A DNA stretch of 64,000 nucleotides. Source: Planctomycetota bacterium. GTDB lineage: Bacteria > Planctomycetota > MHYJ01 > WSZJ01. Made by a program: the position numbers and the translations under genes. How positions within the stretch are numbered: the stretch's first letter is position 1; each line of letters opens with the position of its first letter. Under the pieces are notes generated by a model, which ran no database searches, was not told the origin of the DNA, and saw nothing but the letters and a program-made list of their open reading frames with translations. Shown here piece by piece: positions 5,819 to 47,802 of the stretch. The stretch covers positions 229,301 through 293,300 of the forward strand of contig JBBTCT010000022.1 in NCBI GenBank assembly GCA_038060895.1, written 5' to 3'.

Positions 5819-6965
5819 GGATCATAATGACATGAAACGATATGAGACGGACTTCGACGCCGCCCTGGCGTTCCTCCAGGTCAGCCGCTCCACCCTGAAC
5901 CGCTGGGTCCACGACGGCAAACTCCCCGCCCGAAAGGTCGGCGGCCAGTGGCGCTTCTCCGAAGAAGACCTCACCAGACTCCGCGACGGATCCGGGGAGC
6001 CCGCCCCGCTCGTCCGCGCTCGAGAAGAGCTGAAGACTTTCCTCGAATCCTCACGGGCCAACCGAAAGGGACCGAAAAACATGAACGCCATCGACACGAA
6101 ATCGCAGCCGCTCGCCGAAGCCCTGGTCTGGGAAGCGCACGACCGCAAGGCCTCCGAGCTGCACCTCCAGCCGAGGAAGGACGGCGTCCACATCTCCGTG
6201 GGCAAAGAAGCGCGGCTCGAGACGATCCGCGTCATTCCGGCGGACCTCGCGCGCGAACTCGAGCAGGCATGGGAAGAAATCGGGCTGCCGTTCGGCGACT
6301 CGGGCATCCGCCGGATCTTCCTCAGTCGCGCCGGGGACCAGGCCGTGAACGAAGTCTCCGTGCTACTCCAGGCCATCGACACCCTCCAGGGGCGCCGCGT
6401 CACGCTACGCTTCATGGGCGGCGGCCGCATCGCCGACCTCGATACCGTCGCGCCGAAAGCCGACGACCGCGCCGTCTTCGAGCGCTGGCTCAAGCGCCCC
6501 AACGGGATCATTCTCTTCTCGGGCCCGACCGGCTCCGGCAAGACGACGACGCTCCTCTCCTGCCTTCAGCATCTCGCGAAGGACGCCGGGCTGGCCGTCT
6601 TCAGCCTCGAGTACCCCGCTTATGTCCGCGTCGATGGCGTCGACCAGGTTGAGGTTCCGAGCGAAGACGGCCCGGTCGTCAAGGCCGCGCTCGAGCGCAT
6701 CATGAGGATGTATCCCAACGCGATCGGAATCTGCGTCGAGACCGAAGAAGCCGCCGCGGCCGCGCTGAACATGGCGATCACGGGGCATCTCGTGCTGATG
6801 CAGGTGCATGCAGAAGAGCACGAGGCGGCGGTGAAGCGCCTCGAGCAGCTCGCAGGCAGGCCGGTCGCGCCGTCCGTGATCGGGGTGATCTCGCAGCGGC
6901 TCAAGCGCGGCGACGCGGGCGGGAAGGTGGCTGAGTACCGCTTCTGGGAGCCTGGCGGGAGATAG
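5817..6965 (+). CDS. excisionase-type HTH fused to GspE/PilB-like secretion ATPase (degenerate)
   Basis: N-term LNRWVHDGKLPARKVGGQWRF (HTH_17-like); Walker A ILFSGPTGSGKTTTL; His-box-like HLVLMQVHA; no clear Walker B or Asp box. Confidence 0.65.
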   Translation: MDHNDMKRYETDFDAALAFLQVSRSTLNRWVHDGKLPARKVGGQWRFSEEDLTRLRDGSGEPAPLVRAREELKTFLESSRANRKGPKNMNAIDTKSQPLAEALVWEAHDRKASELHLQPRKDGVHISVGKEARLETIRVIPADLARELEQAWEEIGLPFGDSGIRRIFLSRAGDQAVNEVSVLLQAIDTLQGRRVTLRFMGGGRIADLDTVAPKADDRAVFERWLKRPNGIILFSGPTGSGKTTTLLSCLQHLAKDAGLAVFSLEYPAYVRVDGVDQVEVPSEDGPVVKAALERIMRMYPNAIGICVETEEAAAAALNMAITGHLVLMQVHAEEHEAAVKRLEQLAGRPVAPSVIGVISQRLKRGDAGGKVAEYRFWEPGGR

Positions 6966-34717: not shown

Positions 34718-35677
34718 ATGAGTCCCAAAGACGATTCGGAACGCAATACGTTCCGCCGCATCCACAGCGACCTCGTCGATGATTTCGACGAAGAGCTCGA
34801 GCTGGAATCCGAGGACTACGAGCCCGGGGACATTCCGGCGAAGGGGATTTCCGACGCCGAGCGCGTCCTGCGCCGCCGTTATTTCAAGGAGCTCTTCCGG
34901 CTCCAGTCCGACCTGATCAAGATGCAGGACTGGATCGTGCACAAGGGGCTGAAGCTGGTGATTCTCTTTGAAGGGCGCGACGCGGCCGGCAAGGGAGGGC
35001 TGATCAAGCGGATCACGCAGCGCCTGAACCCGCGCGCCCTTCGCGTCGCGGCCCTGCCGGCGCCGACGGACCGGCAGCGGTCGCAGTGGTACTTCCAGCG
35101 CTACGTGGAACACCTGCCGGCGGCGGGCGAAATGGTGCTCTTCGACCGCAGCTGGTACAACCGCGCCGGCGTGGAAAAAGTGATGGGGTTCTGCACGGCG
35201 GCGGAGCTCGAGGAGTTCTACCGGTCGGTGCCGGAATTCGAAAAGATGCTCGTGCGGTCGGGGATCCAGCTCATCAAGTACTGGTTCTCGATCAGCGACG
35301 AAGAGCAGGAGTTCCGGTTCATGTGCCGGACGATGGACCCGATGAAGCAGTGGAAGCTCTCCAAGATGGACCTCGAGTCGCGCCGGCGGTGGGAGGACTA
35401 CACGAAGGCGAAGGAGATGATGCTCGAGCGCACGCACATCCCGGAGGCGCCCTGGTGGGTGGTGATGGCCAACGACAAGAAGCGCGCGCGGCTGAACTGC
35501 ATCCACCACCTGTTGAGCCAGGTGAAGTTCCAGGAAGTGCCGCACACGCCGCTGACGCTGCCGAAGAGGGAGCACCGGGAGGACTACCACCGGAATCCGG
35601 TGCCGAAGAGCATGATCGTCCCGGACGTTTACGGAGAACCCGGAAGTCCTTCGGGTCAGGCTCCGACGGCCGAATGA
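34718..35677 (+). CDS. polyphosphate kinase 2 (PPK2) family protein
   Basis: Walker A FEGRDAAGKGG, DRSWYNR lid motif. Confidence 0.85.
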   Translation: MSPKDDSERNTFRRIHSDLVDDFDEELELESEDYEPGDIPAKGISDAERVLRRRYFKELFRLQSDLIKMQDWIVHKGLKLVILFEGRDAAGKGGLIKRITQRLNPRALRVAALPAPTDRQRSQWYFQRYVEHLPAAGEMVLFDRSWYNRAGVEKVMGFCTAAELEEFYRSVPEFEKMLVRSGIQLIKYWFSISDEEQEFRFMCRTMDPMKQWKLSKMDLESRRRWEDYTKAKEMMLERTHIPEAPWWVVMANDKKRARLNCIHHLLSQVKFQEVPHTPLTLPKREHREDYHRNPVPKSMIVPDVYGEPGSPSGQAPTAE

Positions 35678-42817: not shown

Positions 42818-43285
42818 TTACTCTTTACCGCCGCAGCACTTCTTGTACTTCTTGCCGCTCCCGCAAGGGCACGGATCGTTGCGGCCGAGAGGCGCGCCCG
42901 CATTCTTGAAAGGCGTTCCCTCGGGTTTCGCCTGCTTTTCGAACGCCGCGGTGAGCGCGCCGGCGTAGGTGGCGAGCTGGCGGCCGCCGTAGAGGCGACC
43001 CTCGGATTCCAGGAATTCGAGGAAGGCGCCGACGAGGTGGGGGACGGAGGCGCGCGCTTCGGGTGGAAGGGCAAGCCGGGCGAGGCCGGTGAGGAGGCCG
43101 TTTCTGACGGAGAGTTCGTCGAGATCGCCGGGAGAAACGGAGGCGCACGCCGTTTCCATGAAGGCCATGAGGAGCGGGGCGGCGTCCAGATCGGGGCGTG
43201 CGCGGAAGGGGCGGAAGGGAGTGGACTCGAGGAAGTCAGCGATCCAGGCTTCGACGCTGTCGCGTTCGAACGTTTCCATGGGCAA
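42818..43285 (-). CDS. SEC-C metal-binding motif protein
   Basis: C-terminal [17 protein letters not shown]. Confidence 0.7.
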
Positions 43286-43573
43286 AGCATCGTACGCGCG
43301 GGGCTGCTGTCGCGCGAGTGGCAGGGGGAATAGTCGCCGGAACGCTCAGCCGAGATCGTATAAAATAAGTACTCTGCGCTGCTTAATGATATGCGTGGCT
43401 GGAGTCTGACGCACAGCGAATTTCAACGGGATTATGCACTTGACAAACTTAAAATCCATGAACGAAACTCGTACAGGCATCATGGTTTGCGTCGATTATG
43501 GCCCCGCGATTAAACGAATAAGAAAATCGCCAGAGTCCCGTTTCAGGACGCGATTTTGGCCCGCGACGAGGAT

Positions 43574-43702
43574 TCAGGACTTACGGCGAGGTTTCCCGGC
43601 CTTCTTAGCCCGCTTCAGGGGGGGTGTAGCGAGGGCCTTCCGGATCATGGCGTCGAAGTCCACGCGGGTCACTTCTCGGTGGCTCTCTGGCTTGGGTTTC
43701 AT
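43574..43702 (-). CDS. small basic ORF (42 aa) inside the element
   Basis: RBS AAGGAG 8 nt upstream of ATG; Lys/Arg-rich tail. Confidence 0.25.
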   Translation of the reverse strand: MKPKPESHREVTRVDFDAMIRKALATPPLKRAKKAGKPRRKS

Positions 43703-43748
43703 CTATCTATCTCCTTGGGGGTTATCAGGCTGATTCCCCTAGAAAGTA

Positions 43749-43777
43749 TTTGACAGCGTCTGCGGCGCAGCTTAGGA
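43749..43777 (+). promoter_or_regulatory. sigma-70-like promoter TTGACA-N17-TAGGAT
   Basis: tttgacagcgtctgcggcgcagcttaggat; downstream ATG at 43786 would be nearly leaderless. Confidence 0.4.
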
Positions 43778-43785
43778 TTTCCCAG

Positions 43786-44175
43786 ATGCGAAGGAACAAC
43801 AAGATCGTGAGCCTTGGAGAGGAAATCGCGGCGAAGCGCCGGGAGCTGGCGGCGCTTGAGGCCGAACTTGACATCGAAGTCAGGCGGTATAGCGGTGGTC
43901 ATGCGAAGGCTCCACAAGCGGTGGTGACACCGCCTAGACCTGCGGACCCTGAAGAGGTCCTTCTGAGTGATGCCATCATCGCTGGCAAGGTGGTGCCTCT
44001 CTTGGACAGGGAGCCGGATCGGGTGTTCACCGTGGATGATATCACAAGATTGACCGGAGTGCCGCGCCACCTTCTGGTGATGTCTATCGGGCGCATGGTG
44101 CGCTGGCACAAGGTCCACAAAGTGGAAGCTGGCAAGTACAAGGCATCCACGGTTAAGAAAGCGATGGAGGGATAA
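43786..44175 (+). CDS. hypothetical protein with coiled-coil N-terminus and winged-helix-like C-terminus (element passenger/regulator)
   Basis: Alternative start at 43750; followed by hairpin ccctcgg-N7-ccgaggg. Confidence 0.45.
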   Translation: MRRNNKIVSLGEEIAAKRRELAALEAELDIEVRRYSGGHAKAPQAVVTPPRPADPEEVLLSDAIIAGKVVPLLDREPDRVFTVDDITRLTGVPRHLLVMSIGRMVRWHKVHKVEAGKYKASTVKKAMEG

Positions 44176-44215
44176 AGAAAAACCCTCGGTCGTTGGCCGA
44201 GGGTGTACGTCGGTT

Positions 44216-44307
44216 GGAGAGGTGTCCGAGTGGCTTATGGTGCTGGTTTCCAAAACCAGTGAACGGTGGTGACACACCGTCCGAGGGTTCGACTCCCTCC
44301 CTCTCCG
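44216..44307 (+). tRNA. class-II tRNA, Ser-like body (acceptor GGAGAGG, G73) with anticodon CCA (reads UGG)
   Basis: Hand-folded: acceptor GGAGAGG/CCTCTCC, anticodon stem CTGGT/ACCAG, loop TTCCAAA, 23-nt variable arm with 6-bp stem ACGGTG/CACCGT, T-arm GAGGG-TTCGACT-CCCTC. Confidence 0.6.
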
Positions 44308-44325
44308 TTTTGCTGTTCTGAGGCT

Positions 44326-44420
44326 GGCCGGGTGGCGGAACTGGTTTACGCGCCCGACTTGGAATCGGGTGGTTGTCTCTTGACGGGGGCACCATGCGGG
44401 TTCGAATCCCGTCCCGGTCA
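44326..44420 (+). tRNA. class-II tRNA, Leu-like body (D-arm GGCGGAACTGGTTTACGCG, A73) with anticodon UGG (reads CCN)
   Basis: Acceptor GGCCGGG/CCCGGTC, anticodon stem CCCGA/TCGGG, loop CTTGGAA, long variable arm, T-arm GCGGG-TTCGAAT-CCCGT. Confidence 0.55.
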
Positions 44421-44541
44421 GTCTCATTTTTGAAAGATCGAAGCGCCTTTGCGAAGTGCTTGAGGCTGGCGCGTGTCAAAAGAATACAACAAGACTGGGT
44501 GCGTGTCAACTTGCGAAATTGACGCACCGCGCCAACTCTGA

Positions 44542-45495
44542 CTAGCGCTTCACATCCCGCTTTGGCGCTTCCAGAGTGAGGCGTTTTCCTTCGGTGCGCT
44601 GGATCGCGTCGAGCATCTTCGCCCCGTCTGACTTCTTCCGGTTGTTGAACGTCCAGAGGTAGGAATCGAGGTACTTCGGAAGGTAGTCATGCCCAACGCC
44701 GTGGAAGATGCCCACGATGGAAGTCTTGAAGTTGGCGAAGAGGCCCTCAACGCCGTTCGTCGTGACGTCCCCACGGGCGTACTCTTCGATGGAGTGGTTG
44801 ACGGTTTCATGCTTCACCATCATCCGCCCTGGCGTGACGTACAGCTTGGATTCGTCTGAGTGAAGCACCGTCCGCTTGGGATCAACGTTCTTCATTACGA
44901 AGCGGCGGATGTCCCGCGCGTTGGCCTTGGGCGCTGGCTTGACGACGGCACGCGCGGACCCTCCACGCTGAACCAGCGCCAGCACGGTTGACTTCTTCAC
45001 GGCCTTGCCACGGCGCGATCCGCGCCCCTTGTGGCCGAAGTAGGTTTCGTCCGCTTCGATGATCCCGGCGAGTGGTGACTTGTCGGAGTTCTGGAGAGCG
45101 TGGCGCACCCGATGGCAGAGAAACCACGCGGTGCGATAACTGCCGAGTTCAAGGTGCCGCTGGATTGCCAGCGCCGAGATTCCTGTCTTGCTGGACGAAA
45201 TGAGGTAGAAGGCCAGCAGCCACTTGTTGAGCGGGATGTGGCTGTCCTCGAAGATCGTGCCAACGGTGCAAGTGAACTGCTTCCGGCACGCCACGCAGAA
45301 CAGCAGCCCCTTGCGAATCTTCTTCTCCGCGTCTGGCTTGAGCCGGGCGACCTTCTCGCGTTCGGTGCAGCCACAGTGCGGGCAAACGGGGCCAGAGGGC
45401 CAGCGCACCGCTTCGATGTAGTTACGCGCGGCGTCCTCGTCTGGGAAGAGAGAGAAGATGTTCGTCAGGCTCACGGCATCGGGCGTCGGGATCAT
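44542..45495 (-). CDS. IS1595-family (ISXO2-like) DDE transposase
   Basis: N-terminal zinc ribbon WPSGPVCPHCG; DDE core around IIEADETYFG. Confidence 0.85.
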   Translation of the reverse strand: MIPTPDAVSLTNIFSLFPDEDAARNYIEAVRWPSGPVCPHCGCTEREKVARLKPDAEKKIRKGLLFCVACRKQFTCTVGTIFEDSHIPLNKWLLAFYLISSSKTGISALAIQRHLELGSYRTAWFLCHRVRHALQNSDKSPLAGIIEADETYFGHKGRGSRRGKAVKKSTVLALVQRGGSARAVVKPAPKANARDIRRFVMKNVDPKRTVLHSDESKLYVTPGRMMVKHETVNHSIEEYARGDVTTNGVEGLFANFKTSIVGIFHGVGHDYLPKYLDSYLWTFNNRKKSDGAKMLDAIQRTEGKRLTLEAPKRDVKR

Positions 45496-45721
45496 GGGCG
45501 TCTCCTTTGAGTACGCCTAAAAGATACTAGATCATGCTTGTTTTGTCAAGTGCATAATCCCGATTTCAAGCTTAACATTATGATATTAAATAAGTTATGA
45601 CACATTGTCTGCAACGGTTCATTCGGCACGTGCGTTGCAATTCAATCTTGACGCGACCTGATCAACGAACGGTTGCGGCCTTCACTTCCCAAACAACAAC
45701 TCACCGATCGGAGAACGACCC

Positions 45722-46810: not shown

Positions 46811-47162
46811 CATGACGACAAGTTCCCTGCCGACGCCGACGGGCGAATCCGTTCCCATGACCAGCTTCCCGGCCTCTGCGCTCAAGAACTCCGCTGCGGA
46901 TGTCCTGGAGATGGTCCTGACCTCCGGCGCCGTTGTCATCACCCGACACGGCAAGGAGAAGGCCGTGATCCTGTCCGTCGAAGCCTACCGGCGACTCGTG
47001 GCTTCCCGCCGCGACGACCTGGACGTTCTACGCGCAAAATTCGGCGGGCTGCTAGCCAGAATGCAGACTCCCGCTGCGCGAAAGGGCGCACGGGCCGCCT
47101 TCGACGCTTCGCCGGATGAAATGGGCAAAGCAGCCGTAAAGGCGGCGCGCCGCCGTGGCTGA
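46811..47162 (+). CDS. Phd/YefM-family antitoxin
   Basis: RBS AGGAGG; core VVITRHGKEKAVILSVEAYRRL; AT-rich palindromic operator upstream. Confidence 0.7.
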
Positions 47163-47802
47163 CCGCCGCGCCGTCATCACCGTGCTCGCCGGCACGAATG
47201 GCGCCGGCAAGAGCAGCATTGCAGGAGCCACGATTCGTTCGCGCCAGGCGGACTACTACAACCCTGACGAAGCGGCGCGCGCTCACAAGGAAGCGCATCC
47301 GGAGGCGACTGCCGAAGAAGCGAACGCCGCTGCGTGGGAATTCGGCCGCCGCATGCTCGAAGAGGCCGCTCGTGAGCGGAAGAACTTCGCCTTTGAAACG
47401 ACACTGGGCGGCAACACGATCATGTTTCTTCTTGAGAATGCAGCGAATTCCGGTTTGGACGTGCGGATCTGGTACACCGGACTTGCTTCAGTCGAGTTGC
47501 ACCTCAAACGCGTCCGGCAACGGGTCCGCCTGGGAGGTCACGACATTCCCGAGGAAATGATCCGGCGCCGCTATGAGAACGGGCCCCGGAACCTGATCCG
47601 CCTCATGCCGAAGCTCGCCTCGCTGCGCGTCTACGACAACAGTGCCGCAGGGGATCCCGCCGCGGGAGTGGCTCCGAAACCAGTTCTTGTTCTGCAGATG
47701 GAAAAGGGCCGAATTGCCGGGCCGAAGGATCTGTCCCGGACTTCCGAATGGGCGAAATCGATCGTCGCGCGGGCCATGGAACTTCACTCGGCGCCCAGGT
47801 AG
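47155..47802 (+). CDS. zeta-toxin-like P-loop kinase (toxin of TA pair)
   Basis: P-loop [11 protein letters not shown]; 8-nt overlap with antitoxin gene; GTG start. Confidence 0.7.

Follow-up and report, generated by a model that had tools for sequence, protein, structure and literature searches.

We analysed a 64-kb window of a Planctomycetota genome (the window is the whole 64,000-nucleotide stretch of DNA introduced above, and all positions refer to it unless another locus is named). It contains an insertion sequence (IS) of the IS1595 family that carries two tandem tRNA genes between its terminal inverted repeats (IRs). In both tRNAs the body and the anticodon appear to belong to different amino acids: tRNA1 (44216-44307, plus strand) joins the Trp anticodon CCA to a class II body of the Ser type, and tRNA2 (44326-44420, plus strand) combines a Leu-type class II body with the Pro anticodon UGG. 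tRNA2 recurs in related elements, and its cognate codon is kept at one position of the transposase genes that accompany it. We put at roughly 0.55 the probability that a missense tRNA (Pro-to-Leu), coupled to the element's own transposase, is the signature cargo of this transporter IS.

The tRNA pair and its relatives

Both tRNA genes are called by ARAGORN and match Rfam family RF00005, with 48.8 bits for tRNA1 and 55.5 bits for tRNA2 (the gathering score is 29), which bears out the original prediction of two tandem, unusual tRNAs. They are the only gathering-level Rfam matches in the 64-kb window, and ARAGORN also finds no others; a weak match to a covariance model of the IS tRNAs at 34719-34798 on the minus strand (15.5 bits, E = 0.24), where ARAGORN and Rfam give nothing, is probably noise. 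The genes are 92-95 nt long, and the variable arm of each is long, as in the class II tRNAs of bacteria (those for Leu, Ser and Tyr). Their minimum free energy folds are class II cloverleaves. Judged from their sequences, tRNA1 and tRNA2 are chimeric, with anticodons that mismatch their bodies.

tRNA1 has a 7/5 geometry (acceptor and T-stem), G73, a 6-bp variable-arm stem, and an acceptor and D-arm of the Ser type. Its best pairwise match among 10 tRNA genes of E. coli K-12 is serV, and its full-length BLAST matches in phage genomes (E down to 3e-7) are annotated as tRNA-Ser. The anticodon is nevertheless CCA, not a serine anticodon (NGA or GCU). tRNA1 has a U10-U25 mismatch in the D-stem and is known so far from the window element only.

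tRNA2 has G1:C72, A73, A14, A15/U48, a 3-bp GCG/CGC D-stem, a long variable arm and the anticodon loop CUUGGAA, and its D-arm, UGGCGGAAYUGG..ACGCG, is shared with E. coli leuT. Under the covariance model of the IS tRNAs, leuZ and leuT of E. coli reach 64.6 and 64.5 bits, compared with 39.2 for tyrV, 38.9 for serV and 38.4 for proM, the genuine tRNA-Pro(UGG). Consistent with this, full-length BLAST matches of tRNA2 relatives, in phages, are annotated as tRNA-Leu. We noted in addition that the anticodon loops of the two window tRNAs are mutually complementary over 6 nt (UUCCAAA and CUUGGAA), so that a kissing complex between them is conceivable, and that UGG is complementary to the universal 3' CCA end of tRNAs.

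The transposase was used to scan species-representative genomes, metagenomes and a protein database, and contigs were looked up for individual homologs. A tRNA(UGG) was found in eight distinct elements, that of the window and seven relatives, in Planctomycetota and Alphaproteobacteria. Taking the window transposase as 100%, those of the relatives are 75% (locus L018), 48% (L062/L063), 46% (L058/L059), 43% (L028/L042 and, separately, L029), 42% (L002/L032, from a Rhizomicrobium MAG, that is, a metagenome-assembled genome) and 41% (L003/L033, from an alphaproteobacterial MAG) identical to it. L018 has nearly the same IR as the window element, L062/L063 has the same 2.1-kb layout, and L058/L059 is present as two tandem copies, 98% identical over the compared repeat. 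In all seven relatives the tRNA(UGG) lies within IRs homologous to those of the window (those of L003, which are degenerate, were identified by eye), each element has different flanks, and four of them (L002, L018, L028 and L029) have their own 8-bp target-site duplications (TSDs). This is the opposite of a tRNA pair that sits outside any IR pair in the relatives, the arrangement that had been named as speaking against a passenger role. An Rfam search at E <= 0.01 on L001-L004 and L006-L008 missed the tRNAs of L002 and L003, which were found by ARAGORN and the custom covariance model.

The eight tRNA(UGG) genes show strong signs of selection on structure. In the four helices 98.9% of alignment cells pair, and compensatory change is seen at 17 of the 20 pairs; none of 500 shuffles reached the observed values, and slid controls paired at only 41-52%. 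G1:C72, A73, A14, A15, U48 and the anticodon UGG are invariant in all eight, and the complete loop CUUGGAA is found in four. The long variable arm and A37 are each present in seven of the eight, in contrast to E. coli proM, which has C1:G72 and G37. The 7-bp acceptor and 5-bp T-stem are supported by covariation and accompanied by a 3-bp D-stem with a 9-11-nt loop. None of the eight has a leucine anticodon (NAG or YAA), the anticodon always being of the Pro type (NGG). Features needed for translation (the 7/5 arm, G18-G19, the T-loop, a 7-nt anticodon loop and A73) are kept in seven. The tRNA(UGG) of L058/L059 is shorter, at 76 nt, with a short variable loop, C33 and an encoded CCA; its body is Leu-like minus the long arm. 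The anatomy of the IS, the body types, the covariation and the conservation of the anticodon, like that of the codon described below, are direct observations. On this comparison, the Leu-type tRNA(UGG) is a defining, vertically conserved passenger of an IS subgroup found in at least two phyla.

The conserved codon of the transposase and its proposed coupling to the tRNA

The transposase gene is convergent with the tRNAs. Near its C-terminus, in the motif GKRL(T/M)(L/Y)xxP, the codon for Pro311 (44563-44565, minus strand) is CCA, the Watson-Crick cognate of the tRNA2 anticodon. The corresponding column is CCA in all eight tRNA(UGG)-bearing elements. Among the first six transposases compared, it was the sole one of 30 invariant four-fold-degenerate columns in which the codon was identical. 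Between clades, only 0.30-0.44 of third codon positions are identical, and even within a clade the value is about 0.5, so that synonymous sites are near saturation. We rejected a nucleotide motif around the coupled codon, because the flanking synonymous sites vary; this argues that the codon itself is kept rather than a DNA or RNA motif.

As a prediction test, we sampled four further homologs. The two that bear a tRNA (L058 and L062) both have CCA at the coupled column; of the two that do not, L060 has CCC and L064 has CCA, in a gene where CCA makes up 7 of the 10 Pro codons. Other tRNA-less relatives have CCG, ATG, ACT, TCG, GTT or GCT at this column, and more distant relatives have Leu codons there (for example, MYRDLI against MYKDPI). 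In 92 of 132 homologs the residue is Pro.

The preference for CCA extends beyond this position. In six tRNA-bearing transposases CCA accounts for 18 of 69 Pro codons (26%), compared with 12 of 127 (9%) in 14 tRNA-less relatives (Fisher p = 0.003, uncorrected for phylogeny) and with 56 of 972 (6%) in host-like open reading frames (ORFs) of the window. Avoidance of CCA and CCG in the IS genes, as expected of a toxic mistranslator, was therefore rejected. At highly conserved prolines (WPxGxxCP and similar) CCG or CCC is used in 22 of 23 cases. The columns at which tRNA-bearing genes use CCA (n = 13) are occupied in homologs by Pro in 27%, Leu in 5.5% and any of L/I/V/M in 22%, against 50%, 0.8% and 5%, respectively, for the CCA columns of control genes (n = 14); after collapsing to distinct columns, Mann-Whitney p was about 0.05 for Pro, 0.03 for Leu and 0.05 for L/I/V/M. 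This is suggestive, if not decisive, of a placement of the transposase CCA codons where homologs tolerate Leu or other aliphatic residues. The fixed CCA codon, together with the other CCA codons at Leu-tolerant sites, points to a tRNA that acts in translation. tRNA2 appears, from these patterns, to be functionally coupled to the translation of its own transposase, and the data suggest that the transposase is adapted to, or exploits, tRNA(UGG).

Organization and boundaries of the element

The element is 2136 bp long (43427-45562) and ends in perfect 21-bp IRs, CGGGATTATGCACTTGACAAA at 43427-43447 (plus strand) and its reverse complement at 45542-45562 (minus strand). The two are 100% complementary and are the only sites of this sequence in the window, with no others at up to 3 mismatches (chance expectation 0). 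They are flanked by identical 7-bp TSDs, ATTTCAA, at 43420-43426 and 45563-45569. Repeats and duplications are thus as originally predicted, and ORF129 (described below) and the two tRNAs do lie as passengers between them, inside the interval 43447-45542. The claim that the element is AT-richer than its surroundings also holds (58.1% GC, where the 5-kb flanks have 65.4% and the window overall 65.8%), although the value of about 68% given for the surroundings was slightly high. The typical TSD of the IS1595 family is 8 bp, the length seen in L002, L018, L028 and L029; the window copy, with 7 bp, is slightly atypical within the family in this respect only. The left IR aligns with the ends of six related elements, with the consensus CG(G/C)(G/A)A(T/C)TATGCACTT..CAAA. 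The ends read C-GGGATTAT, and such ends (GGGATTAT...) resemble the ISNwi1-group consensus in ISfinder (ggnnatTAT), a candidate subgroup for the element.

The insertion had been called fresh. This is plausible, given the perfect IRs, the intact TSD and the single insertion site at which the exact transposase is recorded; the allele without the IS, which would read ...GCGAATTTCAAGCTTAACATT..., was not met in look-ups of the exact flanking proteins, which returned only the IS-bearing locus and a 780-bp contig ending short of the junction. The source genome is a Planctomycetota MAG, and Hainich groundwater has yielded another assembly of this locus. We conclude that this is an intact transporter IS of the IS1595 family that probably transposed recently. 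On its left side it abuts a gene for a SEC-C-motif protein (42818-43285, minus strand). About 1.2 kb downstream of it lies a pair labelled by Pfam as PhdYeFM antitoxin and Zeta toxin (about 46812-47802, plus strand), which is also seen at L056 (3977-4967).

The transposase (317 aa; 44542-45495, minus strand) is of the predicted IS1595/ISXO2 DDE type, with matches to PF12762 DDE_Tnp_IS1595 (2e-29), PF12760 Zn_ribbon_IS1595 (5e-12) and NCBIfam NF033547 transpos_IS1595 (194 bits, cutoff 75). It has 6766 homologs at E < 1e-30, the nearest being 75% identical. A promoter-like TTGACA-N17-TATCTT (45521-45549, minus strand; 10/12 in a consensus scan) precedes it, with the -35 box inside the right IR. 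The element also encodes a small basic protein of 42 aa with the motif DFDAMIRKALATPP..KK, listed as an ORF at 43574-43702 on the minus strand. As had been noted, it follows a ribosome-binding site (AAGGAG, read from the sequence about 10 nt upstream). The protein has no Pfam or NCBIfam match. Homologs of it adjoin an IR in L018, L002, L003, L029 and L062, and there are weaker matches in L028 (at E about 1, with the motif identified by eye) and in L050 and L051, relatives with methyltransferase or PIN passengers. Its presence in these methyltransferase- and PIN-carrying relatives led us to reject it as a tRNA-specific partner; it is probably a backbone gene of the IS group, present with all types of passenger.

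The tRNAs are preceded by ORF129 (43786-44175, plus strand), which was predicted as a 130-aa protein behind a promoter. The promoter-like TTGACA-N17-TAGGAT is there (43750-43778, plus strand; 10/12 in the consensus scan) and would serve ORF129, tRNA1 and tRNA2 as one unit, while the length of the protein is 129 aa. Since the ATG lies only 7 nt past the -10 box, the transcript may be leaderless or have a very short leader. ORF129 has no Pfam or NCBIfam match. Its AlphaFold2 model (predicted local distance difference test score 67, a low confidence) has a long N-terminal helix and a C-terminal winged-helix-like domain (topology H4-36, H55-75, E, H, H, E), and its Foldseek matches in the PDB, all weak (E >= 0.06), are all winged-helix nucleic-acid-binding domains. 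An exhaustive phmmer search of 1.8 billion representatives gave two relatives only, and the ORF in the same position in L018 is 47% identical. We regard ORF129 as a putative regulator of the tRNA unit. Its only distant homolog (28% identity; L065/L066, 4001-4663) belongs to a groundwater phage-like replication module with a family-A DNA polymerase and an intein-containing helicase, and no tRNA is found near it in L065/L066.

Several signals could allow antisense transcription of the tRNAs. Between ORF129 and tRNA1, a terminator scan found a GC-rich hairpin (44182-44204, minus strand; -18.3 kcal/mol, z = -3.5) followed by a T-run on the minus strand, as in an intrinsic terminator for antisense transcripts; the plus strand has no U-tract. 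Equivalent antisense-strand terminators are found in L018 (6093-6110) and L062 (4558-4574). A promoter-like TTGACA-N17-TATTCT (44481-44509, minus strand; 10/12 in the consensus scan) points into the tRNAs from the other side and may function as an antisense promoter, and L018 has a promoter-like antisense site in equivalent placement (5829-5857). The antisense RNA predicted for the window would extend from 44474 to 44182. In L062 the transposase stop codon lies 11 bp from the tRNA, so that the 3' untranslated region (3'UTR) of the transposase would be antisense to the tRNA.

The gene directly upstream of the tRNA is of the same helix plus winged-helix-like kind in the window, L018, L028 and, from a by-eye translation, probably L002; L003 has none. 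In L029 its place is taken by a toxin-antitoxin-like pair (762-1627), by eye a DUF4258-like small toxin and a helix-turn-helix (HTH)/zinc-finger antitoxin. In the elements with tRNA and transposase in the same direction, a conserved Xre-type HTH gene stands between the two (L002, 2352-2633; L028, 3172-3399; L029, about 1774-1986; all on the minus strand), transcribed away from the transposase, with an operator-like palindrome between the two genes (L029, 1993-2046). A decayed second tRNA upstream of tRNA(UGG) was sought in L018, L002 and L003 and rejected, as only hairpins without a covariance-model match were found. The tRNA1 slot of L018 (5975-6095, minus strand) is occupied by another structured RNA, a stem of about 16 bp enclosing two hairpins (-49 kcal/mol, z = -2.2), and L018 also has an extra 160-aa ORF without a family match. 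The two copies of the 3.7-kb tRNA-bearing element at L058/L059 (GCA_964621525.1, CAZUMS010000006.1) stand head to tail with a spacing of 3729 bp.

Members of the same transposase clade without a tRNA carry an N6-methyltransferase with ParE, PIN/VapC or other passengers, and in a rough neighbour-joining tree the tRNA-bearing elements form two clades with non-tRNA members between them. No relatives were found in the viral contigs searched, and no tRNA in the plasmid relatives checked (Mesorhizobium, Roseomonas and Methylobacterium). Sister IS1595 elements (L054, 3477-5956; L055, 757-3310; L051, 3501-6382) encode a PIN/VapC toxin together with a hypothetical protein of 260-290 aa and a small protein; two of these sisters reside on plasmids, one in Roseomonas marmotae and one in Methylobacterium oryzae, both of them cultured. 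As tRNAs are the typical cleavage targets of VapC toxins, this cargo is an intriguing parallel to the tRNA-carrying elements. In L049, L050, L060 and L064 a large N6-adenine methyltransferase is either fused to the transposase or encoded beside it, and a ParE-like toxin and the small basic ORF often accompany it. The relative at L060 lies beside a family-A DNA polymerase gene with multiple inteins and LAGLIDADG domains and beside an IS605 OrfB/TnpB gene (L060, 1-1630 and 7052-8068).

A proposed missense tRNA, its alternatives and known systems

In the reading that we favour, the cargo is a small operon made of the promoter, the winged-helix-like ORF129, the hairpin, tRNA1 and tRNA2. Bacterial leucyl- and seryl-tRNA synthetases (LeuRS and SerRS) do not read the anticodon, and host LeuRS should therefore charge tRNA2 with Leu and host SerRS tRNA1 with Ser. 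Leu would then be inserted at CCA (and, by wobble, at CCG) and Ser at UGG, with tRNA2 acting on the translation of its own transposase as well as on the host proteome. The misreading would be partial, and probably low and regulated. Expression may be restrained by the putative winged-helix regulator and, in elements of the convergent type, by transposase read-through or a dedicated antisense transcript that would cross the tRNAs and end at the conserved terminator; in the window and L018 the promoter-like site would fire antisense across the tRNAs toward that terminator. Decoding is probably low, given the C33 of two members, the loss of elbow contacts in L018 and the layout of antisense promoter, terminator and 3'UTR. 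Natural mistranslating tRNAs are often without U33 (PMC11415595), which parallels the C33 of these two members. It is the identity in aminoacylation, the processing, the decoding, the regulation and the benefit to the element that we infer here.

A narrower proposal, that LeuRS-charged tRNA(UGG) decodes the transposase CCA codons as Leu, is tentative, and we think the odds are against it. If it is true, synthesis of the active or regulatory transposase form would depend on expression of the element's own tRNA. The host would experience low-level Pro-to-Leu mistranslation and, with the window copy, also Trp-to-Ser mistranslation through tRNA1. The element would then act as a self-contained and mobile unit of codon reassignment that transposition spreads from phylum to phylum.

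Several observations weigh against a missense role. The tRNA(UGG) of L018 has lost G18-G19 and the UUC of the T-loop, while all its stems and the CUUGGAA loop are kept, and two copies have C33, so some copies may decode poorly or not at all. G35-G36 with A73 are major determinants for prolyl-tRNA synthetase (ProRS), and CCA with G73 for tryptophanyl-tRNA synthetase (TrpRS); with these present, cognate or dual charging may occur. Four Trp codons of the transposase, including two invariant ones, would receive Ser from tRNA1. The enrichment of CCA in the element's own transposase is contrary to simple toxic mistranslation. The coupled column is mostly Pro in close homologs and variable family-wide (P, S, T, M, V, L), and from this alignment no particular residue seems to be essential there. 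Finally, the statistics on Leu tolerance are marginal (p about 0.03-0.05), with small and phylogenetically structured samples.

A rival reading is a cognate role, similar to that of bldA in Streptomyces, in which, despite the class II shape, ProRS and TrpRS would charge tRNA2 with Pro and tRNA1 with Trp and the IS would bring its own CCA decoder. Transposase translation would be tied to the IS-borne tRNA, as CCA is rare in these GC-rich hosts (6% of Pro codons in host-like ORFs); its enrichment in tRNA-bearing transposases and its fixation at one position fit such a role, as does the predominance of Pro at the coupled column (92/132 homologs). The discriminators A73 of tRNA2 and G73 of tRNA1 also match those of tRNA-Pro and tRNA-Trp, for which the anticodon is the main determinant. 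The body of tRNA(UGG), however, makes us consider this quite unlikely: G1:C72 in 8/8 against C1:G72 in proM, a long variable arm in 7/8 and A37 in 7/8 against G37 fit it poorly, and the covariance model favours tRNA-Leu over tRNA-Pro by 26 bits, with no evident reason for a Leu shape to be kept so long in a Pro acceptor. Moreover, every host must already own a tRNA-Pro(UGG), which makes a strict dependency improbable. Alternatively, the genes may encode a non-translational tRNA-like RNA with a regulatory or addiction role and no decoding on the ribosome; it might be a toxin- or antitoxin-type RNA, a decoy for tRNA nucleases, an antisense partner of the transposase 3'UTR or a binder of CCA ends or CCA-containing RNA. 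The L018 copy, whose stems and CUUGGAA outlived the GG of the D-loop and the UUC of the T-loop, would fit such an RNA, as would C33 in two copies and the bracketing of the tRNAs, in convergent elements, by an antisense promoter or transposase read-through and a terminator. The 6-nt complementarity of the window anticodon loops (UUCCAA/UUGGAA) and the toxin-antitoxin-like pair directly upstream in L029 would also fit, and many allo-tRNAs are inactive in translation and associated with toxin-antitoxin genes or transposons (Mukai et al., PMC5389517). Yet 7/8 copies retain all features needed for translation, and the conserved partner is a codon within an ORF, without conservation of the flanking nucleotides, which points to decoding over RNA-RNA pairing; we therefore hold such a role to be unlikely.

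That the tRNAs are accidental hitch-hikers, whether a native tRNA locus beside an IS or captured, functionless pseudogenes, is very improbable. tRNA1 gives this idea some footing, as it is found in one element only and has the U10-U25 mismatch in its D-stem. Against it, both tRNAs are inside perfect IRs and TSDs, no other tRNA is present in the window, and tRNA(UGG) is inside the IRs of seven other elements with unrelated flanks, showing strong compensatory covariation and an invariant anticodon across transposases that are only 40% identical. A hitch-hiker or native locus is thus largely refuted for tRNA2 and conceivable only for tRNA1.

The missense reading joins two kinds of known system. 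Transporter IS (tIS) have been described in the IS1595 family (Siguier, Gagnevin & Chandler 2009, as cited in PMC8496243 and PMC7986276). The window element is like them in its Zn-ribbon and DDE transposase, short IRs, short AT-rich TSD and passengers within the IRs; here, the passenger is a tRNA operon, and its cargo is conserved across a subgroup and matched by a codon of the transposase, traits that tIS passengers are not known to have. We found no report of an IS-borne tRNA passenger or of a Leu-type tRNA(UGG) in the full-text literature searched, a coverage that excludes most subscription-journal papers.

The allo-tRNAs and 'irregular tRNA polycistrons' of soil bacteria (Mukai et al. 2017, PMC5389517) are class II tRNAs whose anticodon mismatches a SerRS- or AlaRS-type identity and which are often near toxin-antitoxin or transposon genes. 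In E. coli, mistranslation by serylated allo-tRNAs that bear Leu anticodons has been reported, and missense suppression is proven for some allo-tRNAs (PMC5389517). The window tRNAs resemble them in joining a class II body to the anticodon of another amino acid, and the toxin-antitoxin-like pair of L029 echoes the association described by Mukai et al. Membership in that group was rejected, however, because allo-tRNAs have a 12-bp acceptor branch arranged as 8/4 or 9/3 and a long D-stem with a tetraloop (PMC5389517), whereas the window tRNAs are canonical 7/5 with 3-bp D-stems. The conserved IS tRNA is, moreover, Leu-type and not Ser-type, always has UGG and resides inside a defined IS.

In the Streptomyces tRNAProX/ProRSx mistranslation system (PMC10404621; reviewed in PMC11415595), as in the present case, the anticodon and the acceptor identity of a natural bacterial tRNA disagree, which gives deliberate missense decoding there and would do so here; some members have a non-U33 residue, which tempers decoding in the natural mistranslating tRNAs. 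There, tRNAs of Pro identity read Ala, Thr or Asn codons and have a dedicated synthetase; here, a tRNA of predicted Leu identity would read Pro codons and is carried by an IS that has no synthetase gene. The likeness to bldA is of a different sort. The bldA gene of Streptomyces is a chromosomal, cognate tRNA-Leu(UAA), and rare TTA codons make gene expression depend on it. Both cases place a rare codon of GC-rich genomes in a particular gene and give it one dedicated tRNA; unlike bldA, the window tRNA is IS-borne, and its body and anticodon disagree. A further parallel is the tRNA-Ser(CAG) of the CUG-clade yeasts, a class II tRNA with a changed anticodon that its synthetase does not read; the affected codon has been redistributed there to tolerant sites (PMC11415595). 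That change is a genome-wide nuclear reassignment in eukaryotes, in contrast to the private tRNA of a mobile element.

Thus, tIS are known and natural mistranslating tRNAs are known, and an IS with a conserved, anticodon-swapped tRNA as cargo links the two. It would offer a route by which genetic-code ambiguity can move horizontally between phyla as a 2-kb unit. The co-conserved CCA suggests that mobile elements are able to tie their transposase to a decoder of their own, and transposition would then be controlled at a new level. For code engineering, the Leu-type UGG tRNAs are candidates as orthogonal scaffolds, and the element is a compact natural system, with one promoter, one or two tRNAs and one reporter codon, in which to ask whether deliberate mistranslation is adaptive, selfish or regulatory.

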